Of a stretch of DNA of 64,000 bases, positions 949-46,783 are shown piece by piece. A model generated the notes under the pieces. That model was not told the DNA's origin. It was given only the letters and a program-made list of their open reading frames with translations, and searched no databases. Position numbers and translations under genes: made by a program. This stretch comes from a virus (lineage: Duplodnaviria; Heunggongvirae; Uroviricota; Caudoviricetes): the IMG/VR virus record IMGVR_UViG_3300012933_000323, positions 62,432-126,431 of that record. One strand, given 5' to 3'. Position 1 is the first letter of the stretch; each line of letters starts with the position of its first letter.

Positions 949-970
949 TTTAAAATACTTGCAGACAACA

Positions 971-998
971 AAGGGAAGCATAAGCTTCCCTTTTTATT
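971..998 (+). terminator. intrinsic terminator (AAGGGAAGC-ATAA-GCTTCCCTT followed by TTTTTATTT)
   Basis: Perfect 9-bp inverted repeat with a 4-nt loop and a T-run, directly after the stop at 948. Confidence 0.5.
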
Positions 999-1011
999 TC
1001 ACTTGAATTTG

Positions 1012-1317
1012 TTAAACTACAATTCGATCAGGATTGTCAAGGATGATACCTGTCGTTGCTTGGATGTACACAGTGTATGCATCTTTAAACTCGTCCAGTG
1101 GTACTGTCCATAGAATGTTCATTGGATGAATTTGGATTGCTCCTGGTGCTGTCGTCATAACATCAACCATGTATGGCATAATGTTACCATTCTTGGCAGT
1201 GAACGGTTTCTTAATTAAGATTTCCGTTACGCCTGATTCTGTTAGAATCGTCTCACATTCGCCAAACACAACTTCGTTGTTGATAAGTTTGAAGAATCTC
1301 TTTCCTACTTCTGCCAT
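1012..1317 (-). CDS. hypothetical protein
   Basis: 101-aa ORF, tightly spaced after ORF 1327..1509. Confidence 0.45.
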   Translation of the reverse strand: MAEVGKRFFKLINNEVVFGECETILTESGVTEILIKKPFTAKNGNIMPYMVDVMTTAPGAIQIHPMNILWTVPLDEFKDAYTVYIQATTGIILDNPDRIVV

Positions 1318-1326
1318 ATAATCCTT

Positions 1327-1509
1327 TTAGTCTTCCCACTTTTCTGATTCGCATTTCTCGCAATTGACCTTTTTATGTGTCTTGCATTTCTTGCCTTTTT
1401 GCGAATGCTTCTCATATCTTTGCACCATATCCAACTTATTATCTACGGATGCAATATCTGCTGATGTGGTTTCTTCAGCTAGATCTTTTAGATATTTCTT
1501 GAACTTCAT
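1327..1509 (-). CDS. small Cys-containing hypothetical protein
   Basis: 60-aa ORF with CKTHKKVNCEKCE; a late promoter lies about 45 nt upstream. Confidence 0.4.
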   Translation of the reverse strand: MKFKKYLKDLAEETTSADIASVDNKLDMVQRYEKHSQKGKKCKTHKKVNCEKCESEKWED

Positions 1510-1555
1510 ATAAATCCTCTGCTTATTACGTTATATCAAGGTTGATTTAAAAAAT

Positions 1556-1563
1556 ATTTATAT
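1556..1563 (-). promoter_or_regulatory. T4-type late promoter box TATAAATA (minus strand)
   Basis: The plus strand reads tatttata, so the minus strand reads TATAAATA about 45 nt upstream of the ATG at 1509. This is the T4 late promoter consensus. Confidence 0.4.
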
Positions 1564-1564
1564 T

Positions 1565-2074
1565 TTATGATAGCTGTTGGCAGAAAATTAGAGAGTAACT
1601 TTCTTTGAGTAAATTCAAATAGTATTTCTCTAATCCAACATTTGTAGGAGTTTCTATAACAAGGTCATTGCCTTTGATGCATGTCGTGGTATGTGTATTT
1701 CGCGGTGCTTGGATTGCGTAGATTTCAACACTCTCTATCATTAGTTCATTCATTGTCCTAATAATTTTGTCATTCGTAGCGTCGGCTCCTAAGCCACGTT
1801 TATATTGACCCATTCTTGAATAAAAGCCACCACCGCCACCAGCTTTTCCGACTTTTAGAATGTCGTCTTTATAAACCATGAAATAGACTACGTCGCCAAG
1901 TGCTAACATTTCTTGGCGATTAATTGCATGATCGAAGTCTATTTTATCGCCATGTAATTTAAATGATCCGAGATAAATTTGTTTTCTAATTGTCTCCAGC
2001 ATCCACCGTTTCCATAAAAGTATATCTTTATTTATCCAAAGATATACACCCACGCCGGAATTCCACCGGCTCAC
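1565..2074 (-). CDS. GIY-YIG-like nuclease (Endo II/DenA-like, tentative)
   Basis: VVYFMVYKDDILKVGKAG...YSRMGQYKRG resembles the GIY...YIG...R block of T4 endonuclease II (VIYAIAINDELVYIGKTKNLRKRINYYR). Confidence 0.3.
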   Translation of the reverse strand: MSRWNSGVGVYLWINKDILLWKRWMLETIRKQIYLGSFKLHGDKIDFDHAINRQEMLALGDVVYFMVYKDDILKVGKAGGGGGFYSRMGQYKRGLGADATNDKIIRTMNELMIESVEIYAIQAPRNTHTTTCIKGNDLVIETPTNVGLEKYYLNLLKESYSLIFCQQLS

Positions 2075-2084
2075 TTAATCTATG

Positions 2085-2621
2085 TTAAGTGTTTAACCAA
2101 TCTGGTTGGTTGCGCTTCGTGTACTTAGATTGATCTTTCTTAGCACCACGATAATAAGCACGATATGCTTGAACAGAATCATCAGTACGGTAAATGTCAG
2201 GCATTGCCTGTGGCATTTTTGTTGTACCAATATCTTTGATATTTCGTGGAGGTTGGCTAAGAATTACTGCAAGCTTAGTGCATGTAGCGTGAACCTTGCC
2301 ATATCTGAACGTGTACTCGTGGCAAAGACTTACGAAAAGGCGATAAAGCCACATGTAATTATCTTTGGATTCACGTGCCCATACGTTAGATGGGTGGTTC
2401 ATATGAGTCGCTTTGTACAAACGTCCTTCCATGAATTCATCATTCATTTTCCAACGTTTGATTTTACGACCAGTGCTTTGATCAATGTACTGCTCACCAT
2501 CAATAACACGATGTGCAGTACTCAACAGCTGAGCTGTCTCGAGAATCATTTTCACGACATGTTTGTCATGGTGATACTCGGCAGCCAGCTGCGGATCCTT
2601 ATCAAGGAAGAAGACGTTCAT
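2085..2621 (-). CDS. conserved hypothetical phage protein (FLDKDPQLAAEYHHDKHVVKMILETAQLL motif)
   Basis: 178-aa ORF with a motif I recognise as conserved in phages but cannot place in a named family. Confidence 0.45.
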   Translation of the reverse strand: MNVFFLDKDPQLAAEYHHDKHVVKMILETAQLLSTAHRVIDGEQYIDQSTGRKIKRWKMNDEFMEGRLYKATHMNHPSNVWARESKDNYMWLYRLFVSLCHEYTFRYGKVHATCTKLAVILSQPPRNIKDIGTTKMPQAMPDIYRTDDSVQAYRAYYRGAKKDQSKYTKRNQPDWLNT

Positions 2622-12035: not shown

Positions 12036-13160
12036 TTACCAATCATCCAGTTCAGCCGTTTCTTTCCTTAGATCATAATTTAGCGGAGCAACCATTAAAT
12101 CTAAAGGTTTCAAAAATCCTTTTTCAAATTGAGTATCGTAATCAACGCAATTTGCTTTAAGAATTTCCTTTACGAAACCATCGTTGGTATAACCAATGAT
12201 CTCAGTATTGAACACGTTTGGTGTCTGAAGGAAGATTCGTTTACATTTATCTCCAGCCTGGACTGGTGCGTACACGTCTTCTAGATTGTTTTGCTTAATG
12301 TAATGATTATGCATGATGGCAGCACGGGAACCAAACGGCGTACCTTTTTCACCAATCTTATAATCAATGCGAGACACGCCACCTACGCCAGCAATCTGAT
12401 TTAGGTTTACTTTTGTGAACTCATTCTTGATTGATTTAATCCAATCACGTAAATCATTTTCATTCTTGTCAAGAATATGTGGAATTGCTTCTTTTAGATA
12501 TTTCTTAGACCAAGGTGGTGTACTTGACTTAATGATTTCTAAGCCCATGACTTTAATCTTTGGCGCATCATCAGGGTAACGTGTACCTTCTGAATCACGA
12601 ACACGTGCATAGTATTTTTTCTTTGCAGTAAATACAGCCGTGTCAGCAATAATTTCTCGTTCAGCGCCGATCTTATCTTTGTTGTACGCATTCAGTTGAG
12701 CAGCAAACTCTTCAATAGTTTTTTCAATAACTGGTTGAATTACTTTCTTTTCAAACTTGTCTGCGAATTCAACATAGTCATTAATTGGCAAGCCAGGATT
12801 TTGCTGAATGTATTTTTCAATAAACGGTTCAAGATGGTAGTACACAGAGTCGGTATCACCATAAATGATGTACGGTTTTTCTTGTGCCAACAATTTCTGT
12901 AAAGCGTCTTCAATGTTGATAGCCAACTTCTGAATGAAGTATCGACCATTACCAGTAATCGCTGCGGCCATCAACTCATTGAACAGAGGGAACCACTTAT
13001 TAGCCATAGCGCCATAAAGCGAGTTAATCATTGTCTTTTCAACAAGTTGGCGGGTGTTATAAAGTGATTCGCCTTCTTCAGCCTGTGAAAGAAGAATGTT
13101 CAATTCCTCTACAGGCAAAGCGCGTAGTTCATCTTCTGTATATGTAAGTACGTTTTTCAT
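12036..13160 (-). CDS. 43: family-B DNA polymerase, C-terminal fragment (palm motifs B and C, thumb) = gp43B-like
   Basis: Motif B KTMINSLYGAMAN (Kx3NSxYG) and motif C YIIYGDTDSVY. Confidence 0.85.
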   Translation of the reverse strand: MKNVLTYTEDELRALPVEELNILLSQAEEGESLYNTRQLVEKTMINSLYGAMANKWFPLFNELMAAAITGNGRYFIQKLAINIEDALQKLLAQEKPYIIYGDTDSVYYHLEPFIEKYIQQNPGLPINDYVEFADKFEKKVIQPVIEKTIEEFAAQLNAYNKDKIGAEREIIADTAVFTAKKKYYARVRDSEGTRYPDDAPKIKVMGLEIIKSSTPPWSKKYLKEAIPHILDKNENDLRDWIKSIKNEFTKVNLNQIAGVGGVSRIDYKIGEKGTPFGSRAAIMHNHYIKQNNLEDVYAPVQAGDKCKRIFLQTPNVFNTEIIGYTNDGFVKEILKANCVDYDTQFEKGFLKPLDLMVAPLNYDLRKETAELDDW

Positions 13161-13166
13161 GATGTA

Positions 13167-13391
13167 TTATACACCGCTTCTTTTTAAAACACCAAGCACA
13201 ATTTTTGTCACGTCTGCTTCATACTTTTGTTTGGAACACGGCCGACAAAATTTTGATAATTCAGTTGGTTGTTCTTTATCCCAAAATGATGAAAGGCGTT
13301 TCTCACGTTTACAGCATGGGCAAACTTTTGTATTTTCCGTGATGTAACGATGACGCTCCATCGGCCCCATATTTTTGATACTTTTAGCCAT
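13167..13391 (-). CDS. small zinc-ribbon ORF lying in the gap of the split polymerase gene
   Basis: CPCCKREK...CRPCSK motif; the ORF overlaps the stop of the N-terminal polymerase fragment by 8 nt. Confidence 0.35.
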   Translation of the reverse strand: MAKSIKNMGPMERHRYITENTKVCPCCKREKRLSSFWDKEQPTELSKFCRPCSKQKYEADVTKIVLGVLKRSGV

Positions 13392-14985
13392 GTCTTTCCT
13401 TTAGAATTTCTTTGATAAGAATCTTACGTTGTTCAAATTGGAACATCGTCTTTTTTGCGGATTTACGTGAGTCGTAAATTTCTTGAACCATCTCTGGTAC
13501 CATGCCAAGCTTTTCTTTACTAAACACTGCACCGTTGATACCAAGTGTTAGATTATACAACTTAAGTAGATCTGTTGTTGTATCCCAAACTTCGTCAGAT
13601 AGATGTAAACGATTTTCTTCGTTTTGATCATTAAAGTAAGTAAGAACGATATCACGAAGATCTGGTGGTAGCTTACTCTTTGGGATAAACGTTTCAGGAC
13701 TCATGTTGAAACCAACCATACCAAGTAACGGGTACATGGAGTTTACGTCAGCTGATACCACCCATCTATGTTTGCCTGTGTTTGGATCACGAACATAACC
13801 ACCAACGACATGCGGATCAGGAAACTCCTGGCGCATTGGCATAACTTGCATGTTCTTAATAGAACGGTTAGAGATGTACTGTGACCAAGGTTTCACGGTA
13901 CCCATTGAATCGCCGATCTGTACACCCATCTTCTCGGCAATCATACTCATCAATACTGTGAAGTTCTGAGCTTCATCAATACGCTTAATTAGATATGTAT
14001 CGGTTGCGCCGTAGTACACGAATTCCGAATGGGCAAGTTCTTTTACTTCATCCCAGTCACCAGCAATAGCTGCTTTATAGATCAAAGAATTTTTCTGTTC
14101 TTCTGTAGGTTCTTCAGGGATAATGTACTTACCTGTATAGAAGTCGTCAAAGCCAGCGTACTCAGAGTGTTGAACTTTGTTTTCGTTAAGCTCAAACTCT
14201 GCGACGGTGTCCAATGAATATGATGGCATTGGGTGGAATGTGAACTTCTTGTACACATCCATTAAGTCAATCCAAAAGTGACCATCTGCGTTGAACTTAA
14301 ACTCCATCTTGCCTTGGAATTCACCTTCGCTGTATGATACTTTACCGTAGTTTGATAAGCGTGTAGTATCCATGCCTAGGTTCTTTAGGCGGTTATGAAT
14401 GTATGGGAAGTCAAATCCTGAACCGTTCCATGCATACACGATCAATGGATCTAGTTTCTTATAGATGTTTAGGAATGTTTCTAATAGGTGGATTTCATCT
14501 GTACACTTTACATACTTAACTTGATATTTAAATACATAAAGGCTTTGATGTTTCCATTCGCGAAGGCCAAGAATGAACATTGTCTTGACTTCTGAATCAT
14601 AGAACTGCATCAATGAGATGGGTTCTAATGCTTTTTCTGGGACTGGGAAACCAGTACTACATGTACCTACACGTGTTTCAATGTCGAGATACCAGATGCG
14701 TGGAGATGCGTTATAACCACGCTCTTTGCCCCAATAGTTATCGCGGATATTGCGATACATTGGATCCAAGAAACCGTAGTGTTCACGGCCTTGTTTGGCG
14801 TTGCCTTGCTTCTTTTCTAACTTAATTGTTTCATCAAGAATATATGTATAGATACCACGAGATGATGGCTCATACCATTCATACGGTAGATCAATCTGCT
14901 TCTTAACCGAACGATTTAATTGATCATCATACGCTCGTTCATAGAAATTGTAACCATCACGCCAAGTAGCTTCAAATAATTTCAT
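13384..14985 (-). CDS. 43: family-B DNA polymerase, N-terminal fragment (3'-5' exonuclease + motif A) = gp43A-like
   Basis: Exo I WYLDIETR, further exonuclease motifs, and motif A ADVNSMYPLL (DxxSLYPS). Confidence 0.85.
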   Translation of the reverse strand: MKLFEATWRDGYNFYERAYDDQLNRSVKKQIDLPYEWYEPSSRGIYTYILDETIKLEKKQGNAKQGREHYGFLDPMYRNIRDNYWGKERGYNASPRIWYLDIETRVGTCSTGFPVPEKALEPISLMQFYDSEVKTMFILGLREWKHQSLYVFKYQVKYVKCTDEIHLLETFLNIYKKLDPLIVYAWNGSGFDFPYIHNRLKNLGMDTTRLSNYGKVSYSEGEFQGKMEFKFNADGHFWIDLMDVYKKFTFHPMPSYSLDTVAEFELNENKVQHSEYAGFDDFYTGKYIIPEEPTEEQKNSLIYKAAIAGDWDEVKELAHSEFVYYGATDTYLIKRIDEAQNFTVLMSMIAEKMGVQIGDSMGTVKPWSQYISNRSIKNMQVMPMRQEFPDPHVVGGYVRDPNTGKHRWVVSADVNSMYPLLGMVGFNMSPETFIPKSKLPPDLRDIVLTYFNDQNEENRLHLSDEVWDTTTDLLKLYNLTLGINGAVFSKEKLGMVPEMVQEIYDSRKSAKKTMFQFEQRKILIKEILKERHG

Positions 14986-19142: not shown

Positions 19143-19562
19143 TTAGTCCTTTAAAAAGTTAGATGGCACCAACGTATCCAAAGCATAACGTTCAAAATAT
19201 TGATTGCCTGCATTACCTTGCTTTTGATCGCAGATTGCTTTATCAGCATCATTCAATTTACCGTAACGAACGAAGTCGCCATCTTTATTCAAACCTTTGC
19301 GAAGTTCAATAACATCAAATGCGCCTTTCAAACAATCTTCGGCATTCATGTTTACGGTCTTAGCCAAGTTGATCAATGTTACGACTGTATCACCGATAGC
19401 ATCAGATACTTCAGCCATGTCGTTGTTGTTCATCGCATCATGAATTTCAACAACTTCTTGTAGTACACGTTGGTACTGACGTTGGAACGATGCTCCACCG
19501 ATACCGCGAATTGCACCCCATTGGCGAACCGCTTCAAATTCTTTTAAAACTTTTTCTGTCAT
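19143..19562 (-). CDS. MazG-like all-alpha NTP pyrophosphohydrolase (dCTPase/gp56-analog candidate)
   Basis: EVVEIHDAM...DAIGDTVVTLINLA matches the MazG EExxE...D metal-binding helices. Confidence 0.55.
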   Translation of the reverse strand: MTEKVLKEFEAVRQWGAIRGIGGASFQRQYQRVLQEVVEIHDAMNNNDMAEVSDAIGDTVVTLINLAKTVNMNAEDCLKGAFDVIELRKGLNKDGDFVRYGKLNDADKAICDQKQGNAGNQYFERYALDTLVPSNFLKD

Positions 19563-19601: not shown

Positions 19602-20042
19602 TTAAATATTATGAATGCTTTCTATAGTAAACACATTGGTATCTGTATCATATGAAATGACAATTACCTTTGTGCTAAAAAACCATTGCCTTGTGGCACT
19701 TTTCCTTCTTCGTAATTTAGAGATTTCTCTATCTGTACCAGATTCTGTCATGGTGTGTTTGCGCCATGTCTTTACTTCTGTTCTTGTGCCACCTGGCGAA
19801 ATTAGATCATGCCATTTTGCATCATCATTCGTATAGTTAAATTGTGACATAAGAATGTACTCGCCAATCTTACCTAGCAAAGTATCTTTCCGTATATCAT
19901 CAAATGTACGAGGTCTACCCGATAGTGAATTATTATCTGCATAATCTGATTCATAAATCGAAGTAGCCTCAAGGTCCGCAGCATCTAATACATATTGCGG
20001 AAGTGCATCCCTATCAACAACAAATTGATCACCAATCACCAT
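19602..20042 (-). CDS. hypothetical protein
   Basis: 146-aa ORF. Confidence 0.4.
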   Translation of the reverse strand: MVIGDQFVVDRDALPQYVLDAADLEATSIYESDYADNNSLSGRPRTFDDIRKDTLLGKIGEYILMSQFNYTNDDAKWHDLISPGGTRTEVKTWRKHTMTESGTDREISKLRRRKSATRQWFFSTKVIVISYDTDTNVFTIESIHNI

Positions 20043-21325
20043 TGCTCCGCTTCAGGCATAGACGGTGTATCTAACCTTTGCTTGATGTTATCCTGCATTA
20101 CGAATGGTGTACTAGAAATTTGAAGCTTGCCATTCAAATATTCTTTGATCTGTGATCCGATAAATGTAGCAGTTTTAACTGGTACGTTTTGAGAAATGTG
20201 GTTCCAATTCTTTTTGGCTTCAATCATCTCAAAGTCATGAGGGTGACCCATTAGATGTAACAGTTCACGAATGTTATATCCTCGTTCTTCAGTAGGATGT
20301 AATGATCTATGAATGTTTTTAGAAATAACAGCATTAACATACTGACCATCATTGGCCAAGTATGTTGTGCTATCCCAGTATCCTAGACCTTGTTCACGCT
20401 TCTTCTTACAATGTCTACAAATTCTTGCGGCTCTTAGGTACTTATCTTTATCAGATGTTTCGCCAAGTTCCTTAGCTTTCTTTTCAAACCATTCAATGGC
20501 AGTATCAAAACCAATGTGGTCCGTTAATTGTAAAGCTGTCCATGTATTCTTACCTGGGCCAATCTTTTGCATGGACTTATAGTAATTTGATTCACCTGAA
20601 TATGCTAAGATAAAGTCATAGAATTGATCTTTAGAATCAATAGCAACTTCTTCATCCCAGTGCGGCATACCTTCACCAACAAATGTCAAATATTCCGGCA
20701 ATGGTGTATATGGAACCAATTGGTAGTTAAATAAACCAGGATTACCGTCACGGTAAAAGTTAATAAATGTCCTCTTACGAGATTGCGGGATACCATGTAG
20801 CAATGTATCAGTACGGAATAATTGTGTGGTGTAACCAGCATCTTTAGCGATTGCTTCCAATCTTTCAACGACTGACTTACCAGCTTTCGTGTATGCAGCT
20901 GGCGCATTCTCAAATGCAACCACCTTAGCACTCATTTTAAAACCAAGCTTAGTTAGCCCGTACATATTTTGGTTTTGGTCGTTATCGGCATCACCCCGTG
21001 CTTTTGAACCAGTTGAACATGCGTTCAATTGACTTAGGCCAGCACAAACAGCTACGTGCATTAATACATCAACACCATCTTCAACAATTTTGTTGAAAAG
21101 TGTCTCGTCTTCGTTGGACTTAAATGTAATATAGTCCGTTTCCATATTAATGACAGGAATGTTAAGTTTCTTGATTTCATTCATGTACTTGATGTAATGA
21201 TTGTCATTACCGAACCCAGCGGTGATGATTGCCTTTGGTGGTGTACCAAAAGCATTTTGAAACCCAATCGGCATGCCACCAATTAGTGGCTGTGCCACAA
21301 CCCATTTAATATTTTTACCAGTCAT
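20036..21325 (-). CDS. DNA C5-cytosine methyltransferase-like protein (divergent) with a 250-aa C-terminal extension
   Basis: Motif I LIGGMPIGF, motif IV VAVCAGLS (PCQ-like with Cys), motif VI FENAPAAY (ENV) and motif VIII GIPQSRKRTFI (QxRxR) occur in canonical order and spacing. Confidence 0.5.
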   Translation of the reverse strand: MTGKNIKWVVAQPLIGGMPIGFQNAFGTPPKAIITAGFGNDNHYIKYMNEIKKLNIPVINMETDYITFKSNEDETLFNKIVEDGVDVLMHVAVCAGLSQLNACSTGSKARGDADNDQNQNMYGLTKLGFKMSAKVVAFENAPAAYTKAGKSVVERLEAIAKDAGYTTQLFRTDTLLHGIPQSRKRTFINFYRDGNPGLFNYQLVPYTPLPEYLTFVGEGMPHWDEEVAIDSKDQFYDFILAYSGESNYYKSMQKIGPGKNTWTALQLTDHIGFDTAIEWFEKKAKELGETSDKDKYLRAARICRHCKKKREQGLGYWDSTTYLANDGQYVNAVISKNIHRSLHPTEERGYNIRELLHLMGHPHDFEMIEAKKNWNHISQNVPVKTATFIGSQIKEYLNGKLQISSTPFVMQDNIKQRLDTPSMPEAEQW

Positions 21326-22541
21326 CTAATCCCTCTTCTTTAATAATTTCTTGAATGGAAAATGCATTTCCATTTTTATTTATGGCTGGCATGGCGGCCT
21401 TGATCGTGTTTGACAATGTTTTACCGTTCAAGTCATCTTCTTTGATACATGATAGACATTCAGCTACAATCTTACCGTATAGTTCTGGATCTGCGTTCAG
21501 CTGAGAAATCTTTTCGCCAAGATCAGATGGTTTGGATAAGCGAATAAAGTCAGGGACATTACAGTGTTTTTGTTCATCATATGTTGGATGAAAGAATGGA
21601 ATGATACCGTTAGAAATCATTTCAACCCACTTCGCAGTAACCCAACCTGGTTTGATTGGAATGATCAACGTGTACTTTACGGATGGCAATTCAGTCTGAA
21701 GATCTTCAAACTTTTTAGGCCCTTTGAATCTTTGATCACTGCCAATTGTTGCCTCGTCCCACTTACCATAAATGGCTACATCCTGCATTGAATCAAGAAC
21801 ATATTCTTTAAGCATCGGGTAACGTGACTTAACTCCGTTATTACCTTCGTTAAGAACCATCATAAAACCAATTGTCTTATTCATGGTTGCTGGAATCTTT
21901 TTATCAATCAGAAAGATTTTTTCCATACCTGCATAAACGGCCGGAATTTTGTTCTTGACATAATTCTGATCAACCCAATTATCGAAAGTTTGCATCTCGA
22001 TGGTTTCAGTGTACTGCGAAAGAATCTTCTTTGGTTGATTCATGCAGTCATTGCCTTGGCCGATGTATCTAGGATCATTCGCAATCATAACCCAAGGGAT
22101 GTTGCTTTCATTTAAGTATTGATATACTGGCGCTACATAATTTGTAAATGTTTCCAATGACTTTGCATATTCTTTCTTGCCAACTTTTAAGTCATTTCGT
22201 TTCCATGATTTGTTTGGAATATTACAATTAGCAACAGGTCCACTAAGCATGAAACATCCATCTACTTGGACATCCTTAAGTCGTTGGACGATATAGTTGA
22301 CGTCTTTACGTTGCTCAGAAGTTGCTCCTTCATAAACATCTCGCAAGTTGGTTGGTAAGTTCATCTCTTTGCGATGCTTATCTACATCATTTCGACCGAT
22401 GATGATAAATGTATCATCTGGGTTTAACTCAGCCATTTTGCGAATAAGTTCAGGTGCTTCGTTGTCGCCACCAATAGCGCCCCAAGTACTTGGGTTAAAT
22501 TTTACAGACTTACCAATCTTACCGCACAAATATGTTGCCAT
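21315..22541 (-). CDS. glycosyltransferase resembling T4 DNA beta-glucosyltransferase (Bgt-like, tentative)
   Basis: LNEGNNGVKSRYPMLKEYVLDSMQDVAIYG aligns with Bgt YGGSFRSGQRESKMVEFLFDTGLNIEFFG, and AKWVEMISNGIIPFF with Bgt RVWETMASDAVMLI. Confidence 0.4.
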   Translation of the reverse strand: MATYLCGKIGKSVKFNPSTWGAIGGDNEAPELIRKMAELNPDDTFIIIGRNDVDKHRKEMNLPTNLRDVYEGATSEQRKDVNYIVQRLKDVQVDGCFMLSGPVANCNIPNKSWKRNDLKVGKKEYAKSLETFTNYVAPVYQYLNESNIPWVMIANDPRYIGQGNDCMNQPKKILSQYTETIEMQTFDNWVDQNYVKNKIPAVYAGMEKIFLIDKKIPATMNKTIGFMMVLNEGNNGVKSRYPMLKEYVLDSMQDVAIYGKWDEATIGSDQRFKGPKKFEDLQTELPSVKYTLIIPIKPGWVTAKWVEMISNGIIPFFHPTYDEQKHCNVPDFIRLSKPSDLGEKISQLNADPELYGKIVAECLSCIKEDDLNGKTLSNTIKAAMPAINKNGNAFSIQEIIKEEGLDDW

Positions 22542-22578: not shown

Positions 22579-23979
22579 TCAGTTAAAAATTTTGTCAATT
22601 TGCATCTGAATCATTTCATCCGAGTTTTCAATATACTCATTAATACGAAGATGTTTCTTTAAATCATTTAAGACATTAATTCTTTCATCGTCATGTTCAT
22701 TATAGAAATTGATGCGTTTCTCAATATCTTCTGCACATCTTACAATAAGCTTAGATTGAATTTCTGCTGGAATCTGTAAACAAGCAGGATCGTATTGGTG
22801 ATCTAATAACGGTAAGATATCTCTATATGTGTACAGAACTGGTCTAAAGTTCAATGAATCATTAATTGATACACACCTAAAGACCATGCCGTACTTGTAT
22901 CTTTGCGTTTTTTCATTTAACTCATGTGGTAGTAAAGAACCTTTAAAGTGCGCATGATTTTTAACACTTTCATATAGATCAATGAAGTTCTCGTTCTCTT
23001 TTAATAATGATTCTTGGTACTCAGCTTTTCCGCCATGACTCTTATTAATGCCGTTTCTTCTTAATGGGATATAGTAAGAACACTTTTGTGATTTAACACC
23101 ATTTAAGAATTCGTCCCATATAAATCTACGTGAACCTTTATCCTGGAAAATTGTACCAGCAAAGAACATGTTATGCGACTTTTCAACTAGTGGTTCGTCC
23201 CAATCATCCAACCCAACAGGTTTGAATTTATTGTCGTAGACGATGTGTTGTAATTGCGCAATGTCCAACTGATTAAAATTTCTAGTGCCCCGCTTATCGT
23301 CGGCAAAATAGAAAAATGTTGATTTGACATTATGTTTATCAAAGTAAGGTGTATAGATGGCTGGGTCAATTGAAAAACCAATTACTTTGCCATTTAACTT
23401 ACCACTACGATTAATAAATTCAATTGCGCGCGTAAACAAGTTATAGTCCTGTGTACTAAATGCAAACGGAGAAACATATTTGTCATAATATTTAATGACC
23501 ATATCGTTCACTTCGTCGATGTCTTTTAGTACTTGTTCATCTGATCCAACATAATCAAAGAATTCGTTCTCAAGGTCACTTAGATATGCGTGAGTTTTTC
23601 TTGATGCATAAGCTGTTAACGGAAGTCTAAAGAAGTCGTCTGTGCCAAGTACAATATAATCAATCTGTGGCAAATCTTTAAAGCTTTCAGCTAGCCAACC
23701 GTCCAAGGTAACTTTGTTCTTTTCCCTATAGTCTGGTCCAGCAACTTTTCTCAACAGCTTTGCAGTTGGCTTGCGGTTAATCTCATAGTAATTATCAGTT
23801 AGTCCACAGCCTGAACCCACTGTGATGATATTGAACTTATCTTTAATATGTTCTTTAATAACGCGCGCTGCACCATAGATATGGGTGTACGCACTTTGGT
23901 CACCCTTATCCATAAAAATTACAGTTTTCTTACTATCATCAATAATAAGTTTCCCTCGTAACTCAAAAATCATTTTCAA
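22579..23979 (-). CDS. hypothetical 466-aa protein (second glycosyltransferase candidate)
   Basis: No motif recognised; the call rests on its position inside the modification operon. Confidence 0.35.
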   Translation of the reverse strand: MKMIFELRGKLIIDDSKKTVIFMDKGDQSAYTHIYGAARVIKEHIKDKFNIITVGSGCGLTDNYYEINRKPTAKLLRKVAGPDYREKNKVTLDGWLAESFKDLPQIDYIVLGTDDFFRLPLTAYASRKTHAYLSDLENEFFDYVGSDEQVLKDIDEVNDMVIKYYDKYVSPFAFSTQDYNLFTRAIEFINRSGKLNGKVIGFSIDPAIYTPYFDKHNVKSTFFYFADDKRGTRNFNQLDIAQLQHIVYDNKFKPVGLDDWDEPLVEKSHNMFFAGTIFQDKGSRRFIWDEFLNGVKSQKCSYYIPLRRNGINKSHGGKAEYQESLLKENENFIDLYESVKNHAHFKGSLLPHELNEKTQRYKYGMVFRCVSINDSLNFRPVLYTYRDILPLLDHQYDPACLQIPAEIQSKLIVRCAEDIEKRINFYNEHDDERINVLNDLKKHLRINEYIENSDEMIQMQIDKIFN

Positions 23980-25498
23980 CCTTTAAATAAATTTCTTTAA
24001 AGATGTTATAGTAAATCTCTTGATTATTTTTATTATGTGAGTGCAATGGTATCATGCTTAGGAATAAGCTTGCACAAATCAATAAAATATACTCTTGTTC
24101 ATCCTTTGAGTAGTATTTATTGAACTTATCTTTAAACAGATTTTTGATGCTGTCTTTGCCTTTGTTATAAAGTTGGTATGTACTTCCATCTTTTACATAA
24201 AGTTCAGCGTCAACAAAATCGTAATCAAACATAATTGAATGGCACATTTTTGCTACTTCATAATAGTGATCACCAAATAATTCACCACGTGGGTCAATCA
24301 TTGTAAGGTTACCGTTGAAGTCATAAAGTAGATTACTAAAACAATAATCGCCATGCATCAATGTTGGCCGAGGGCAAATAGAAGCAATTGCACTTTCAAA
24401 GTCTTCAATGAAATCATTTACTAACTTATTTTCAATTGGAATTTCAATATCTTTCACACGAGACTTCGTCTTGTCAATTACGGTTTTCATAAAACTATTA
24501 TGTTGACCATACGTCTGCATAACACGAAGTTGCTCAAACATTGCTTCAAACAACGTATCCCAGGTTTCTTCTGAAGAATCTAAAAACAAGTAAATTTCGC
24601 GAACCGATGGGGCTTTAACTTTTTCCATCTTATACCATGTACGCGCAGCGAATAAATCTTTTGCAAAAATTCTTGGAGTATGAATCGCAATATCATCTGG
24701 TAAATTCATAAACCAGTTGCACTCTTTAATGATCTTTTCGCGCTCTTTCTCGCTTGACTTAGTAATAAATGGTCCGTCAATTTTAATGTCATTAAATGAT
24801 CTAGAAATCTTAACAGATCTATTCTCCAAGTACTCTTCCAATGTCCCGAAGTCAACCATTGAAAGATTGATAGTACTCATGTAATATTCATCAGCCGTCC
24901 ATTGAAGAGTTGTGCTTAACTGGAATTCACCCGCAATTTTGTATGATGCATCACTTAGTTGTTTAGCCAGCATTTTAAACAATGTCTTTGAACTAACAAA
25001 ATGATACACTCCGCTAACAGACAGGTTAGTATTAGGTCTATCCTGTGGCTTATCCAGGAATTGTTTACAGTAACCGTCAGCATCAGTTTCAACCATACAC
25101 CAACGTGAATAGTCAGGTACTTCCTTAACGGAAATAAAATTTGCATAGAACATGTCACTTGGGATATCATCTTGCACAACTAGATCACCCAAGAGAATAA
25201 GCACATTCTCGTTAACGTCAGTTGGATCCTCTGCTGCCAAGACGGCACCAGCTAATCCATTTCGTTCTTCTTGATGGCAAATAGTGACGTTCTTATTGTA
25301 AAACTTTAGAATGTCTTTTACTGTATCTTCTGCATGATTTAGTACTACACGGATTTCTGTACACCCGTGCTTTTCCAACCACTCAATCTGGTGAATAAGA
25401 ATTGGCTTTTCTTTGTACGGTAAGATTGTCTTACTGTAGTGCTTGCCCAATTCTTTAAATCTAACACCGCGACCGGCGGCTGGAATAATACCTAACAT
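23963..25498 (-). CDS. bifunctional sugar-1-phosphate nucleotidyltransferase (N-term) / APH-choline-kinase-like anomeric kinase (C-term)
   Basis: The N terminus reads MLGIIPAAGRGVRF...LILLGD (RmlA/GlmU/LicC fold). The C terminus carries LMHGDYCFSNLL and MIDPRGE (HGDxxxxN...D kinase motifs, as in LicA/NahK/AmgK). Confidence 0.65.
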   Translation of the reverse strand: MLGIIPAAGRGVRFKELGKHYSKTILPYKEKPILIHQIEWLEKHGCTEIRVVLNHAEDTVKDILKFYNKNVTICHQEERNGLAGAVLAAEDPTDVNENVLILLGDLVVQDDIPSDMFYANFISVKEVPDYSRWCMVETDADGYCKQFLDKPQDRPNTNLSVSGVYHFVSSKTLFKMLAKQLSDASYKIAGEFQLSTTLQWTADEYYMSTINLSMVDFGTLEEYLENRSVKISRSFNDIKIDGPFITKSSEKEREKIIKECNWFMNLPDDIAIHTPRIFAKDLFAARTWYKMEKVKAPSVREIYLFLDSSEETWDTLFEAMFEQLRVMQTYGQHNSFMKTVIDKTKSRVKDIEIPIENKLVNDFIEDFESAIASICPRPTLMHGDYCFSNLLYDFNGNLTMIDPRGELFGDHYYEVAKMCHSIMFDYDFVDAELYVKDGSTYQLYNKGKDSIKNLFKDKFNKYYSKDEQEYILLICASLFLSMIPLHSHNKNNQEIYYNIFKEIYLKVENDF

Positions 25499-25845
25499 TA
25501 TAGTCCTTCTAGTAAATGCAGTTCATCAGGTCGAACCGCCTTATCATCAATGTAAATTATACCGAACGGTTTGTTAAAATCCAAGCGATCATACTTCACA
25601 TTATATTTATGCAACCACGAATTTATGATAGATCGGTATTTCTTATCAGCATCTTGCCTATTTGACGCTGATACATGACCGCGTGCAGTATAGATGTGAA
25701 TTAGATAACCTCTATTATGTAGTTCATTTAGTTTATTTATGAGTTCAACATTTGGTTTACCATCAGCGATATTTGACTTATCATGCGCTGGGTGTAAGCA
25801 CAGTGTATCATCAAAATCTACGATGACGAGCTTATCATAATTCAT
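25498..25845 (-). CDS. small HAD-superfamily phosphatase
   Basis: Motif I VDFDDTL, motif II IYTAR, motif IV IYIDDK. Confidence 0.55.
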   Translation of the reverse strand: MNYDKLVIVDFDDTLCLHPAHDKSNIADGKPNVELINKLNELHNRGYLIHIYTARGHVSASNRQDADKKYRSIINSWLHKYNVKYDRLDFNKPFGIIYIDDKAVRPDELHLLEGL

Positions 25846-26390
25846 TATACTGTCCTATGTAATGATCCAAACATTAGCGTCAACTCAATTGGTTTGGATC
25901 GCAGGTCTTTCATCAGTTCGTCAGTAATTTCGCTGTAGCCTTTAGCTTCACGCATGCGCTCAAGGTGCACGATCAATTCAGTTGGTAATTCAGTAATAAA
26001 TCTAAGATCTGCTGGCAAAGCACCGTCAATATCTGAACTTCGGAAGTACACATTCAAATAAATTTTATCACGAACCAAGATCTGAATAGTACTGATGCAA
26101 TCTGGTGAAACAGCAACTAAACGACGAGTGTCCAAGATATTTACATTGCTGTAGTATTTGATTTCTTGAAGTTTAGAAAACAACTGATGCTTTAGAAAAT
26201 TATGGAAGTGCAGTTCATTTCCACGACGCTCAATCAGCTTATCATTAATGTATTTACTCCAAAGAATGATTCCGTAATCGCTACAATGAACGAAGTTATC
26301 AAATGTTGCTTTGTATGTAACTGCGCATAATTCGCGAGAATCTAAACTATGATCTAAATTCTCATACATTTCTTCAATGATATTATACAT
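25845..26390 (-). CDS. hypothetical 181-aa protein within the hmC modification operon
   Basis: No motif recognised. Confidence 0.4.
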   Translation of the reverse strand: MYNIIEEMYENLDHSLDSRELCAVTYKATFDNFVHCSDYGIILWSKYINDKLIERRGNELHFHNFLKHQLFSKLQEIKYYSNVNILDTRRLVAVSPDCISTIQILVRDKIYLNVYFRSSDIDGALPADLRFITELPTELIVHLERMREAKGYSEITDELMKDLRSKPIELTLMFGSLHRTV

Positions 26391-27054
26391 TCATGTCCTT
26401 TAACATATCAAAGTGGCGTTCATATACATGCAAGTTGGATGCTGTCCAGATTAGATCACCAACTTCTACATTCAATGATTTAGCAAGTTTAGTTTGGATA
26501 TGACGAGCCCACGCATAATCATTATTATAGCCGAAGACGCTATCGTTACTACGCATGATGTAATGAGAAATTAGTTTACCATTACGAATAAAGAATGAGT
26601 TAGCGAATGTACACATGAAGTCATTCATGCCATCTTTATTGAAGTCCGTATGCATTGATGGTCGATTATAAATCATCGTAGCACGGCGAGAGTCTGGGTT
26701 GTTTTTGAGTTCTTGTAATACATGTGAATATTGATATCCATTTTCTGGAGTGTAAACACACCATCCATAATTGGAATTAATCTTTCCTTCTGTAGATGAA
26801 ACCGCTTCCCAAATAGCAGGAGTTTTACCAGGGATATCTCGAACATATAGACTCATGGATTCATACCATGCTAATTCACGTTCGATGTATTCATATGCAG
26901 GTGTACGAACGATATGATCTTCATCAGCAATGAATGTAGCACCAAGAATTTCGATTGTCTTTGCACCAGTTCGGTCAATAGTAAACTCTTGGCTATCGTA
27001 AGCCTGTTTAAACATCTTACGGATGTCTTGTACTTTTAATCCAGTATTAATCAT
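26383..27054 (-). CDS. 42: dCMP hydroxymethylase (T4 gp42 homolog, thymidylate-synthase fold)
   Basis: Near-identity with T4 gp42 blocks: DRTGAKTIEILGATFIADE, NPDSRRATMIYNRPSMHTDFNKDGMNDFMCT, and MRSNDSVFGYNNDYAW, where Asp occupies the cytosine-specificity position (TS has Asn). Confidence 0.85.
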   Translation of the reverse strand: MINTGLKVQDIRKMFKQAYDSQEFTIDRTGAKTIEILGATFIADEDHIVRTPAYEYIERELAWYESMSLYVRDIPGKTPAIWEAVSSTEGKINSNYGWCVYTPENGYQYSHVLQELKNNPDSRRATMIYNRPSMHTDFNKDGMNDFMCTFANSFFIRNGKLISHYIMRSNDSVFGYNNDYAWARHIQTKLAKSLNVEVGDLIWTASNLHVYERHFDMLKDMNV

Positions 27055-27062
27055 GGTATTCC

Positions 27063-27632
27063 TTAATATGTATGGTTAATAAAATATGTAACACGCTCAG
27101 AAACTTTTTCGGCATCAGAATGAACAATGTTGATCAATAATTTATTCTTAATCAATGACTTATCGTGTGCATTGATAAAATTGTTGATTTCTGTTTTCTT
27201 CTTTTCTTTATCTGTGCTAAAAGACAAGCCATCGTCACGCATAATCAAATTGTCTGGTTGATCAATGAGTGTGATAAGATAAAGATTATCCCAGATAGGA
27301 TGGATGTGTTTGAACTTGCGTTCAACATCAAGAACGTACTCACCTGTATATCCGCGATAAATCGGGCCATACACCATTTCACCCAGATGTGAACGATCAA
27401 AAATCATACCTGATTTATCGTACTTTGAACACTCAAACATGTTTTGGAACATTTCTGTGTACATCTTTGTACTGTATTCAATAGTTTTTGCAGGTGATTC
27501 TTGCTTTACATTTGAATAATGTAATGCGTGTAAAGTAAAGTTGTTGAATTTATTTTTAAGGTTTTGGATCAATGTACTCTTACCTACATTGTCTGGACCT
27601 TCAATGATGATGAATAGATTTCGTTTATTCAT
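27063..27632 (-). CDS. dNMP kinase of the thymidylate-kinase family (hm-dCMP/dTMP kinase candidate)
   Basis: P-loop IIIEGPDNVGKSTL and a thymidylate-kinase-like overall length. Confidence 0.6.
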   Translation of the reverse strand: MNKRNLFIIIEGPDNVGKSTLIQNLKNKFNNFTLHALHYSNVKQESPAKTIEYSTKMYTEMFQNMFECSKYDKSGMIFDRSHLGEMVYGPIYRGYTGEYVLDVERKFKHIHPIWDNLYLITLIDQPDNLIMRDDGLSFSTDKEKKKTEINNFINAHDKSLIKNKLLINIVHSDAEKVSERVTYFINHTY

Positions 27633-46412: not shown

Positions 46413-46783
46413 TTGATTGCTGCAATACGGTTAAGATGCAATGTAACGTGTACTGTGCGTGTTTTGTTTTCAATATGAAGTGTATCTTTAACTTCAGCCC
46501 ACGTACGACTGTCGTACTCCGTCTTCCAATCAAACTCACGACCATCTGGATGGCACCAATGTGAATATTTTTGTTCCATTGCTACTCGGGCACGAAAATT
46601 ACCAGTTGGCTTACTTACGATATAACCAATGTATGTACCCTTATCACAACCAACGTGGTTGCCATAACCAGAACGAACCATCATTACTTGTTCACCTGGT
46701 TGAATCGTAGTACCAATAGCACCAGTGATTGGTTTAACGTGAACCTCAACCGGTACATACTTTTTGTATTTCTTTTCAGTCAT
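46409..46783 (-). CDS. hypothetical protein
   Basis: 124-aa ORF. Confidence 0.4.
   Translation of the reverse strand: MTEKKYKKYVPVEVHVKPITGAIGTTIQPGEQVMMVRSGYGNHVGCDKGTYIGYIVSKPTGNFRARVAMEQKYSHWCHPDGREFDWKTEYDSRTWAEVKDTLHIENKTRTVHVTLHLNRIAAIK

Follow-up and report, generated by a model that had tools for sequence, protein, structure and literature searches.

Invariant catalytic residues and a rebuilt cofactor pocket in a putative C5-cytosine methyltransferase-fold enzyme of a phage hydroxymethylcytosine-sugar operon

A protein encoded within the hydroxymethylcytosine (hmC)-sugar operon of a T4-like phage is predicted to adopt the two-domain fold of the DNA C5-cytosine methyltransferases and belongs to a large, uncharacterised clade of this fold. 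As judged from sequence alignments, the enzyme is probably catalytically competent but atypical, and its gene appears to be a fixed accessory of the phage hmC-glycosylation module. Our best guess, with a probability of about 0.35, is that it carries out post-replicative C5 modification of the cytosines that escaped hmC substitution.

The window, i.e. the whole stretch of 64,000 nucleotides that was analysed, contains the reading frame announced by the original prediction, ATG-initiated and on the minus strand (Table 1). Pfam PF00145 matched it with 43.1 bits (cutoff 22; E 4.8e-11) over aa 15–394, which correspond to profile positions 10–323 of 324, and the motif match to C5 methyltransferases is far beyond chance; the NCBIfam dcm model TIGR00675 gave 20.9 bits (cutoff 100.65). 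Profile–profile alignment (hhalign) with the M.HhaI family profile covered aa 6–415 with a probability of 97%. The AlphaFold2 (AF2) model has a mean pLDDT of 93.5, and the best 50 matches retrieved from the PDB by Foldseek were all C5 cytosine methyltransferases, each with a probability of 1.00, including DIM2, MET1, ZMET2, HaeIII, DNMT1, CmoX, HhaI and DNMT2. The gene is under strong purifying selection (dN/dS of 0.034 against a 96%-identical relative, with similar values for the neighbouring genes). What had been taken for an additional C-terminal region of 250 aa is made up of ordinary methyltransferase parts. Indeed, the approximately 240 residues that follow motif VIII comprise the variable target-recognition domain (approximately aa 195–340), which is all-helical, motif IX (aa 344–364, PTEERGYNIRELLHLMGHPHD), motif X (aa 376–386, HISQNVPVKTA) and a family-specific tail of approximately 40 aa with a conserved KQDN.

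Table 1. Features of the modification cluster (positions in the window)
Feature	Position	Strand	Basis or remark
Putative C5-cytosine methyltransferase-fold enzyme	20036..21325	-	429 aa, ATG start
Codon of Cys94	21044-21046	-	key codon of the methyltransferase
Codon of Glu139	20909-20911	-	key codon of the methyltransferase
Codon of Arg183	20777-20779	-	key codon of the methyltransferase
Codon of Arg185	20771-20773	-	key codon of the methyltransferase
Codon of Gln379	20189-20191	-	key codon of the methyltransferase
p408, putative T4 beta-glucosyltransferase (BGT)-like GT-B DNA glycosyltransferase	21315..22541	-	408 aa; AF2 and Foldseek
p466, function unassigned by searches	22579..23979	-	466 aa; no database match
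Sugar-1-phosphate nucleotidyltransferase/APH-type kinase fusion	23963..25498	-	PF00483 E 4e-18, PF01636 E 4.5e-5
Small HAD-type phosphatase, sugar-activation branch	25498..25845	-	115 aa; phrog_1238 E 6e-22
p181, truncated thymidylate-synthase-fold paralog	25845..26390	-	181 aa; tblastn
T4 gp42-type dCMP hydroxymethylase (5hm-dCMP synthase)	26383..27054	-	PDB 1b49/1b5e E 2.5e-71, full length
dNMP (thymidylate-kinase-like) kinase	27063..27632	-	phrog_761 E 1.3e-16; P-loop kinase Pfam matches
p146	19602..20042	-	146 aa; no database match; 7-nt overlap of its start with the methyltransferase stop
MazG-like all-alpha NTP pyrophosphatase	19143..19562	-	phrog_715 E 1.9e-17; NCBIfam MazG

The four motifs quoted in the original prediction occur in the expected order: LIGGMPIGF (aa 14–22), VCAGLS (aa 93–98), FENA (aa 138–141) and PQSRKRTFI (aa 180–188). 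The identity of the catalytic Cys depended on the alignment method. HMMER pairwise and profile alignments set HhaI Cys81 opposite Gln99, as if the catalytic Cys were lost, and the pairwise ones pair the VCAGLS Cys with HhaI Cys76, a non-catalytic residue. This register was rejected, and the VCAGLS Cys is taken as the equivalent of HhaI Cys81 because hhalign aligns C94 with C81, because it occupies the beta4 position in the model and because relatives carry PPCAGLS or CPCAGLS; its earlier assignment as the motif IV Cys was correct in spite of the HMMER pairing. In the same hhalign alignment, E139 corresponds to E119 and R183/R185 to R163/R165. Conservation was counted over 357 distinct family sequences: C94 is kept in 356 of 356, E139, R183 and R185 in all 357, and Q181 in 354. 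The residue that precedes the catalytic Cys is Val in this phage and Pro in 58% of the family, and motif VI reads ENA, not ENV. That the enzyme retains the catalytic Cys and an ENV-type Glu is thus borne out by hhalign and by family conservation; the loss of either residue, named beforehand as a refutation, is contradicted by the alignment, in which C94 and E139 are both present.

The cofactor pocket, as read from the alignments, appears atypical throughout the family. The stretch proposed as motif I is there, but it is non-canonical: the family has (Q/I)PLIGG in place of FxGxGG. According to hhalign, HhaI F18 is replaced by Q12, G20 by L14 and E40 by G37, with G22/G23 alone being kept; the F18 position is Q, I or V across the family, 99% of the sequences have L14, and motif II has lost its Glu, the E40 position being G, A or P in 81% of the family. 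The family therefore lacks both SAM-binding hallmarks, the FxGxGG of motif I and the acidic residue of motif II. A profile search of the N-terminal part alone against canonical enzymes, intended to settle the SAM motifs, gave nothing significant (E ~0.8). The HhaI Q82 position is Ala or Ser, and of 354 sequences, 350 have Gln and two have Arg in place of N304; in M.HhaI, the Q82A substitution reduces methylation about 16-fold (PMC3526304). Because this remodelling is family-wide, neofunctionalisation is a serious possibility, although the remodelling is no proof of it.

The proposal that the phage makes hm-dCMP pre-replicatively is supported by the gp42-type hydroxymethylase (1b49, E 2.5e-71). 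At the E. coli ThyA positions, this protein has L143 changed to D, C146 and D169 kept, and N177 changed to D, and L143D, D169 and N177D are the criteria for 5hm-dCMP synthases (PMC13326640). Since D169 is kept, this thymidylate synthase (TS) homolog is of the hmC type and not of the 5hoC type. The dNMP kinase would phosphorylate hm-dCMP, and the MazG-like pyrophosphatase, which matches PF03819 just below the cutoff (20.5 vs 22 bits, E 5.8e-4), is a candidate dCTPase. The nucleotidyltransferase/kinase fusion, also matched by NCBIfam nucleotidyltransferase models, would make the NDP-sugar donor, and the DLP3/RB69 arabinose pathway has an analogous fusion (PMC13326640). The match of the HAD phosphatase to PF25109 is likewise below the cutoff (20.1 vs 27.6 bits, E 7e-4); a co-occurring copy is present in 18 of 39 groups. 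p408 had no match in Pfam and PHROG; its AF2 model (pLDDT 92.1) is closest in the PDB to the T4 BGT structures 1nzd, 1bgt, 1qkj, 1c3j and 1j39 (E 2.4e-9 to 2e-7), and some of its homologs carry PF13524.

The placement of the methyltransferase inside this decoration operon also held, as its gene overlaps both neighbours, the end of p408 and the start of the methyltransferase sharing 11 nt; promoter and terminator sites scanned over the cluster were no commoner than in shuffled sequence. As for the other genes of the cluster, aa 98–178 of p181 fall, by tblastn, within the TS homolog gene of Pseudoalteromonas phage XG4, and the protein has a weak TIGR03283 match and an RSSD...P.D motif. Neither p466 nor p146 matched anything in Pfam, PHROG, NCBIfam or PDB sequences. 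A p466 homolog is present in 10 of 39 dereplicated loci, being a cluster member only in the clade of the window and a few others. p146 (dN/dS 0.05) shows, by eye, a possible D...ExK nuclease-like motif. A restriction–modification pair made of the methyltransferase and the overlapping p146 was considered and rejected: the motif is D..ExK-like, but p146 has no database match, and it cannot explain the methyltransferase family because its homologs occur only in close relatives (L001, L013, L087 and L089).

The operon placement had been put forward as a clue to the pathway, and it is no local accident since hundreds of diverged phage contigs show it as well. A BGT-like glycosyltransferase is found at 32 of 39 dereplicated methyltransferase loci, and the methyltransferase at 78 of 80 loci anchored on the BGT-like glycosyltransferase. 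This linkage holds through at least four gene orders and through changes of glycosyltransferase type, of which at least three kinds accompany the family: BGT-like, DNA alpha-glucosyltransferase (annotated in TIM5-like phages, PMC10087341) and a NeuB/CMP-sugar cluster with others. Within the 10-kb flanks over which TS homologs were sought, all those other than canonical ThyA are dCMP-specific (N177D), and all of these except that of S-TIM5 (L143C) have the full hydroxymethylase signature. The families that recur around the 39 dereplicated loci are glycosyltransferases, TS homologs, sugar-activation genes and replication genes. The methyltransferase thus travels almost always with genes that coat DNA with sugar and therefore seems to be part of a DNA-disguise pathway. 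Note that the module also occurs without the methyltransferase gene in Enterococcus Denvervirus phages and at locus L098; since it works there without the gene, the methyltransferase would be an add-on that is unneeded for glycosylation itself.

The family comprises at least 450 clusters at 50% identity, and only six records of sequenced cultured phages contain it (Pseudoalteromonas phage XG4; four TIM5-like cyanophages). A megablast search with the 8.7-kb cluster found no near-identical known phage, and tblastn with the methyltransferase matched only phage XG4 (33% identity) and TIM5-like cyanophages (27%). The loci belong to related T4-like genomes with replication genes downstream. Among bacterial genomes, three family loci were found in 185,579 species, all in metagenome-assembled genomes and at least two with hmC-type neighbours. 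The target-recognition domain is homologous over the whole family, with conserved motifs, and is never swapped; a single target shared by all members is implied. There are descendants in eukaryotes, too: these homologs contain introns, keep all the family motifs and carry fused C2H2-like zinc fingers, a feature that argues for DNA. Relatives bear the public name 'site-specific DNA-cytosine methylase', and literature searches for the family or for the methyltransferase/glycosyltransferase pairing returned no description.

The modification of residual cytosine would proceed as follows. The gp42-type hydroxymethylase, with the dNMP kinase and MazG nearby, would supply hm-dCTP before replication; the HAD phosphatase and the kinase/nucleotidyltransferase fusion would make an NDP-sugar; and the BGT-like glycosyltransferase would add the sugar to 5hmC in DNA. 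After replication, the methyltransferase-fold enzyme would act on phage DNA, at cytosines that retain C5-H because, as we propose, dCTP was incorporated instead of hm-dCTP. In the classical covalent mechanism, Cys94 would attack C6, Glu139 would protonate N3 and Arg183/Arg185 would keep O2 and the phosphate in place; C5, once activated, would then accept a one-carbon group, a methyl from SAM by default, presumably yielding 5mC, so that no unmodified cytosine would remain for host endonucleases. This reading is favoured by the fold and full-length homology to C5 methyltransferases, by the 100% conservation of the four catalytic residues together with the low dN/dS, by the single homologous target-recognition domain and by the linkage to the hmC module (32/39 and 78/80 loci; dCMP-specific TS homologs), as well as by the fact that the module works without the methyltransferase in Enterococcus Denvervirus phages and at L098. 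To our knowledge, every characterised PF00145 enzyme attacks C5-H cytosine. CmoX does so too (PMC12783734), and the eukaryotic homologs presumably work in cells with ordinary C-DNA. What speaks against residual cytosine as the substrate is the family-wide absence of the SAM-binding hallmarks (F18, G20, E40), the changes in the pocket of the transferable group (Q82 to A/S, N304 to Q) and the dcm score, far below its cutoff. The T4-like combination of hydroxymethylase, kinase and MazG may leave little C5-H cytosine in phage DNA; 5mC is no substrate for glycosylation and would be exposed to methyl-directed restriction; and it is not obvious why the gene stays in the sugar cluster through rearrangements of gene order.

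Nearly as likely is a neofunctionalised enzyme of the pathway that would act on 5hmC or transfer a group other than methyl. Such an enzyme would flip out 5hmC or residual C and use Cys94 for covalent chemistry other than SAM methylation: the 5-CH2OH might be activated via an exocyclic methylene, another nucleophile replacing the hydroxyl; a larger or different group might be transferred; or DNA cytosine might be hydroxymethylated directly, thereby feeding the glycosyltransferase. The strict coupling to dCMP-specific TS homologs and to at least three kinds of DNA glycosyltransferase, the cluster membership kept while gene order was shuffled, the strong purifying selection on a gene whose phage should have no C5-H in its DNA and the family-wide remodelling at F18, G20, E40, Q82 and N304 all argue for it. 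However, the glycosylation module occurs without the methyltransferase in Enterococcus phages, eukaryotic homologs exist, and no candidate gene for co-substrate synthesis was identified; DNMT3A uses SAM although its residues at the Q82 and N304 positions are deviant as well, and no enzyme of the methyltransferase fold is known to act on 5hmC in nature. As to chemical feasibility, Q82 and N304 are the exact positions that were opened in engineered M.HhaI to accommodate bulky groups (PMC3526304), C5 methyltransferases can, in vitro, use formaldehyde to hydroxymethylate C and attach thiols to 5hmC (PMC7176277), and CmoX provides a natural case of non-methyl transfer by the same fold (PMC12783734).

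It is unlikely that the enzyme is a weapon or takeover factor modifying host C-DNA, to which the hmC-sugar DNA of the phage would be immune: this would explain why only phages with C replaced carry the family, and it agrees with the universal co-occurrence with dCMP-specific TS homologs and with the intact catalytic residues, but nothing indicates that the enzyme is toxic or directed at the host, its close neighbourhood to the glycosyltransferase is left unexplained, and T4-like phages usually degrade, rather than modify, host DNA. By analogy, T4 Alc and EndoII/IV, which discriminate C-DNA from hmC-DNA, lend it some plausibility. An ordinary sequence-specific anti-restriction m5C methyltransferase, sitting beside the cluster only through inherited T4-like synteny, seems quite unlikely. 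The PF00145 assignment, the public names of the relatives and the origin of the loci from related T4-like genomes with replication genes downstream speak in its favour; yet the linkage persists through at least four gene orders and where the glycosyltransferase is of another type, no swap of the target-recognition domain is seen, the family is nearly missing from bacterial genomes (3 loci in 185,579 species), the cofactor motifs are atypical, and there is no conserved restriction-enzyme partner. Finally, it is very improbable that the protein is catalytically silent and assists the glycosyltransferase by flipping bases or binding DNA, or that it is an m5C methyltransferase of RNA (tRNA). The degenerate SAM motifs and the translational coupling of the methyltransferase gene to the glycosyltransferase gene are compatible with such a role, and DNMT2 is a precedent for the C5-methyltransferase fold acting on tRNA. 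Invariance of Cys94, Glu139, Arg183 and Arg185 over 357 sequences is, however, unexpected for a non-catalytic protein, BGT-type enzymes flip their own target, Enterococcus phages manage without the methyltransferase, and the zinc-finger fusion of the eukaryotic homologs points to DNA rather than RNA.

By hypermodifying their DNA, phages resist restriction and CRISPR, and these modifications have yielded enzymes for biotechnology such as T4 BGT, TET-like oxidases and CmoX. If the enzyme only methylates leftover cytosines, it would represent a fail-safe layer in nucleotide-substitution strategies. If 5hmC is the substrate or another group is transferred, the enzyme would perform a DNA chemistry that is new and might be turned into a tool for the selective labelling of 5hmC; it is conceivable, though doubtful, that the protein is the founding member of a natural class of hypermodification enzymes with the C5-methyltransferase fold that do not simply methylate. 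Members of such a class could act on 5hmC in DNA through a Cys–C6 adduct and an exocyclic methylene, or could transfer a non-methyl one-carbon or larger group, for instance by direct hydroxymethylation of DNA cytosine. Exocyclic-methylene chemistry on 5hmC has so far been seen only in vitro, as an 'atypical' reaction catalysed by M.HhaI and M.SssI. The question lends itself to direct testing in Pseudoalteromonas phage vB_Psh_XG4, a cultured host–phage pair that has the full module, and in the TIM5-like cyanophages.

Compared with enzymes of the Dcm/M.HhaI type (PF00145), the phage family has the same fold, the same order of motifs I to X, the catalytic Cys, the motif VI Glu, the Q-x-R-x-R and a motif IX RE...LMG.P.D. 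It differs in having (Q/I)PLIGG as motif I, no motif II Glu, (P/V)C(A/S)GLS instead of PCQxFS in motif IV, ENA in motif VI, SQNVP instead of GNxVP in motif X, an all-helical recognition domain and the conserved KQDN tail, and in occurring in lytic T4-like phages instead of restriction–modification systems. CmoX (PDB 8YF3; Foldseek E 5.5e-13) is also a phage enzyme with the C5-methyltransferase fold, and the HhaI N304 position is changed in both. It is a DNA cytosine C5-carboxymethyltransferase whose product is a handle for, or part of, a hypermodification; it is recognised by its SPPC motif, by Arg350 and by the Cx-SAM synthase CmoA encoded next to it, and its SAM contacts through Phe, Glu and Asp are the canonical ones (PMC12783734). 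Here, by contrast, the Cys is preceded by VAV (VAVC; PPC or CPC in relatives, never after Ser), the N304 position is Gln, and the Phe and Glu are missing. No CmoA-like gene was found, either as a class-I methyltransferase Pfam among the cluster genes or with a crude motif I regex over the 114 ORFs of the window. A CmoX-type carboxymethyltransferase was ruled out on these grounds (no SPPC, no Arg350, no CmoA-like gene found in the window), and the suggested use of carboxy-SAM is therefore not supported.

In MT-5mYOX(TET)-GT pathways, a C5 methyltransferase gene likewise adjoins DNA glycosyltransferase genes, but 5hmC is made on DNA by the methyltransferase and a TET dioxygenase (PMC8256090; bioRxiv 10.1101/2023.12.21.572611), whereas here it would come from the gp42-type hydroxymethylase, at the nucleotide level. 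A TET/JBP-type 2OG-Fe(II) dioxygenase was found neither by Pfam in the 10 cluster genes nor among the recurrent neighbours of the 39 loci, which ruled out this route. The enzyme set is partly shared with T4 hmC glucosylation (gp42, gp1, gp56, alpha/beta-GT) and the RB69/DLP3 arabinosyl-5hoC clusters, namely the gp42 homolog, nucleotide kinase, MazG-type pyrophosphatase, HAD phosphatase, kinase/nucleotidyltransferase fusion and GT-B glycosyltransferase. These systems are without a C5-methyltransferase homolog, and the word 'methyltransferase' is absent from PMC13326640; a 5-hydroxycytosine pathway of the RB69/DLP3 type was ruled out here, Asp169 being kept in every neighbouring TS homolog. Finally, the engineered enzymes eM.HhaI (Q82A/Y254S/N304A) and eM.SssI, which accept bulky groups and derivatise 5hmC (PMC3526304; PMC7176277), have the pocket residues Q82 and N304 altered, as in the phage family. 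Those enzymes are laboratory mutants derived from canonical methyltransferases, whereas the natural family, known from sequence, carries at the N304 position the longer Gln instead of Ala.

The methyltransferase-fold ORF (MT) matches the Pfam profile PF00145 (C-5 cytosine DNA methylase) with 43.1 bits (cutoff 22, E 4.8e-11), residues 15–394 aligning with profile positions 10–323 of 324; the NCBI dcm model gives 20.9 bits, for a cutoff of 100.65. An AlphaFold2 model built with 50 homologs (mean pLDDT 93.5, pTM 0.91) returned C5 cytosine methyltransferases as all of its top 50 Foldseek matches in the PDB (DIM2, MET1, ZMET2, M.HaeIII, DNMT1, CmoX, M.HhaI and DNMT2 being among the matches), and residues 6–415 were covered by a profile-profile alignment to the M.HhaI family profile (probability 97%). 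The original prediction of a C5-methyltransferase-type enzyme is thus confirmed, while the 250-residue C-terminal region that it had set apart consists of the target-recognition domain (about residues 195–340), motif IX (344–364), motif X (376–386) and a short tail. This family-specific tail contains a conserved F.KQDN.KQ motif (Gln411 in 319 and Asn413 in 347 of 357 family sequences) and has no counterpart in M.HhaI.

In HMMER alignments, the cysteine of the VCAGLS motif of MT faces the non-catalytic Cys76 of M.HhaI (reference sequence 100% identical to protein P0433), a register which, if right, would mean that the catalytic cysteine is lost. It is contradicted by hhalign, which places D86...C94 of MT opposite D73...C81, by the position of strand beta4 in the model (residues 87–90, immediately ahead of the loop) and by the PPCAGLS or CPCAGLS sequence of most relatives. 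We therefore equated Cys94 with Cys81, in the following map (MT/M.HhaI): Q12/F18, L14/G20, G16 and G17/G22 and G23, G37/E40, D64/D60, V93/P80, C94/C81, A95/Q82, E139/E119, R183 and R185/R163 and R165, Q379/N304. Since Cys94, Glu139, Arg183 and Arg185 are invariant in 357 distinct family sequences and dN/dS is 0.034 against a 96%-identical relative (neighbouring genes being similar), MT is, by sequence criteria, under strong purifying selection and equipped with a complete covalent-catalysis apparatus.

The predicted cofactor side is unlike that of every canonical C5 methyltransferase. In M.HhaI, Gln82 and Asn304 line the pocket of the transferable group, and Q82A lowers methylation about 16-fold while helping the transfer of extended groups (PMC3526304). 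Among the same 357 sequences, the Gln82 position is Ala or Ser, never Gln, 81% have Gly, Ala or Pro where M.HhaI has Glu40, and Leu14 and Gln379 are each 99% conserved. These changes should not be over-read, because DNMT3A, which likewise deviates from PCQ and GN, still uses SAM.

The genes from 27632 down to 19143 all lie on the minus strand, overlapping or with tiny gaps (from dNMP kinase to MazG: +8, -8, -1, -1, -17, +37, -11, -7 and +39 nt). The hydroxymethylase has L143D, C146, D169 and N177D (E. coli ThyA numbering), and the gene content of the cluster supports the premise that the phage would make hm-dCMP before replication and decorate it through an operon. The truncated thymidylate-synthase (TS)-fold paralog, kept in the window's clade, has an RSSD...P.D motif and a weak TIGR03283 match; its tblastn match falls within the phage XG4 TS gene. 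The 146-aa ORF, present in close relatives only and with no database matches, contains a possible PD-(D/E)XK-like motif (HDLIS...TEVKTW), and its dN/dS of 0.05 indicates purifying selection. In a 77%-identical relative (L001), the genes for the BGT-like glycosyltransferase (GT) and MT, which overlap in the window, are separated by an insertion, a homing endonuclease gene of the SegE/GIY-YIG-like type placed exactly at their junction. The remaining window is T4-like (gp41-type helicase, split family-B DNA polymerase, clamp loader, terminase, RNA ligases, NAD salvage genes); another close relative, L089, has the same polymerase split, with a 74-aa ORF between both parts.

Coordinates of the cluster genes (ordinals give transcription order) and of other features in the window and in related loci
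Feature	Location	Strand	Details
dNMP kinase (1st)		minus	
T4 gp42-type dCMP hydroxymethylase (2nd)		minus	PDB 1b49, E 2.5e-71
Truncated TS-fold paralog (3rd)	25845-26390	minus	181 aa; directly downstream of hydroxymethylase
HAD phosphatase (4th)		minus	
Nucleotidyltransferase-kinase fusion, NTPk (5th)		minus	
Protein, function unassigned (6th)		minus	466 aa
BGT-like protein, GT (7th)		minus	408 aa; AlphaFold2 pLDDT 92.1; best fold match T4 beta-glucosyltransferase 1nzd, E 2.4e-9
MT (8th)	20036-21325	minus	429 aa, ATG start
MT tail past motif X	20036-20155	minus	aa 391-429
Protein, function unassigned (9th)	19602-20042	minus	146 aa; start overlaps MT stop codon by 7 nt
MazG-type pyrophosphatase (10th)		minus	
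DNA polymerase, exonuclease/N-terminal ORF	13384-14985	minus	533 aa
DNA polymerase, polymerase ORF	12036-13160	minus	374 aa
NAD+ salvage	53900-55330; 56788-57774	minus	Nicotinamide phosphoribosyltransferase; NMN adenylyltransferase/Nudix fusion
Two RNA ligase homologs	46783-47868; 52977-53873		
Homing endonuclease gene	L001 9120-10004		
S-TIM5 annotated ThyA	L004 4751-5587		AEZ65733.1
Enterococcus phage Planchet module	L090, OX422066.1 44265-61410		Kinase, TS/hydroxymethylase, HAD, NTPk, BGT-like GT
MAG contig cluster	L167 3000-16200		JBBACR010000001.1, 425 kb, labelled Pacearchaeota
Eukaryotic family members	L085 104-4492; L086 ~351-2434		

The family is large: a 50%-identity library contains 5195 of its representatives at E <= 1e-3, of which 450 reach E <= 1e-30. 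Only six records of it come from cultured phages, and three loci from the 185,579 species genomes of GTDB. When 79 MT-anchored IMG/VR loci were dereplicated to 39 groups, a BGT-like GT was found in 32 (median offset -1.26 kb, same strand; MT and GT directly adjoin or overlap each other in roughly half the groups), a TS homolog in 22, NTPk in 21 and HAD in 18. Conversely, MT lies within 6 kb in 78 of 80 GT-anchored IMG/VR loci, one of the two others having only 878 bp of downstream sequence. Gene order varies (TS-NTPk-HAD-GT-MT, TS-GT-HAD-NTPk-MT, TS-HAD-...-GT-MT and the window's own), so the linkage is not just frozen synteny. Canonical ThyA proteins aside, every TS homolog beside the family is dCMP-specific (N177D), with the full hydroxymethylase signature except in S-TIM5 (L143C). 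TIM5-like cyanophages, in which a DNA alpha-glucosyltransferase is annotated (PMC10087341), carry MT, and their "ThyA" has N177D; with Asp at N177 and Cys at L143, that of S-TIM5 is probably specific for dCMP rather than a genuine thymidylate synthase. As judged from gene content, MT belongs genetically to hmC-glycosylation modules. It is predicted to be an accessory and not a prerequisite for glycosylation, because the kinase-TS-HAD-NTPk-GT module also occurs, with no MT homolog, in locus L098 and in Enterococcus Denvervirus phages, the latter a natural 'minus-methyltransferase' comparison.

In the MAG contig cluster, MT and a dCMP hydroxymethylase are accompanied by a NeuB-like synthase of nonulosonic acids, a CMP-sugar synthetase-like protein, glycosyltransferases of other kinds (GT2- and GT25-like), a kinase and a HAD phosphatase. 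This is a hint that hmC DNA may bear sugars resembling sialic acid; the archaeal label of the contig may come from the binning of a large virus. The family also has eukaryotic members (P0283, P0287, P0297, P0314, P0399, P0110, L085 and L086) of 567–1462 aa, in which an N-terminal family domain precedes long low-complexity tails that contain zinc-finger motifs of a C2H2-like type. Their marine metagenome contigs each hold one gene and, to judge by length alone, may be transcripts; a GT...AG intron, about 55 nt long (about 644–697), interrupts the genomic copy L086.

The paradox of a C5 methyltransferase in an hmC-making phage is real, and sharpened by the comparative data. We prefer the reading, at a probability of about 0.35, that MT is a post-replicative gap-filler, which after replication would act on phage cytosines missed by hmC substitution. 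To our knowledge, all members of the fold characterised so far attack C5-H; homology of the recognition domain extends over the whole family, implying one common target; glycosylation modules occur without MT; and intron-bearing eukaryotic homologs keep all family motifs. Tentatively, and with almost the same likelihood, MT could be a neofunctionalised enzyme whose substrate is 5hmC or whose transferred group is not methyl, as suggested by the loss of the F18, G20 and E40 equivalents and the replacement of those of Q82 and N304, exactly the two positions at which engineered enzymes were opened to handle bulky groups and derivatise 5hmC (PMC3526304; PMC7176277). The strict cluster association across sugar and glycosyltransferase types points the same way, and the precedent of DNMT3A against it. 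A function directed at host DNA appears improbable, an unrelated, ordinary anti-restriction methyltransferase slightly more so, and an inactive accessory or RNA enzyme very improbable.

We found no description in the literature of the family or of a C5-methyltransferase homolog paired with a gp42-type hydroxymethylase, and a methyltransferase is not mentioned for the related clusters in PMC13326640. From its sequences, this phage-borne family forms a separate clade within the fold, its cofactor pocket rebuilt and its position in hmC-glycosylation operons fixed, and the paradox is open to direct test in the cultured phages vB_Psh_XG4 and S-TIM5. Three known pathways were ruled out. Asp169, which separates hydroxymethylases from 5-hydroxy-dCMP synthases (PMC13326640), is kept in the window's TS homolog, so that the latter type of enzyme is excluded. 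The MT-TET-GT route (PMC8256090) has a TET dioxygenase, whereas no TET/5mYOX dioxygenase was found in the cluster or among the recurrent neighbours of MT-family loci. The suggested use of carboxy-SAM is not supported either: three features define the phage C5-carboxymethyltransferase CmoX (PMC12783734), namely SPPC, Arg350 and a neighbouring CmoA. MT lacks the first two, and no CmoA was found among the cluster genes by Pfam or the window ORFs by motif scan. In CmoX, moreover, the canonical cofactor contacts of Phe, Glu and Asp are retained (PMC12783734), whereas in MT those of Phe and Glu are gone.
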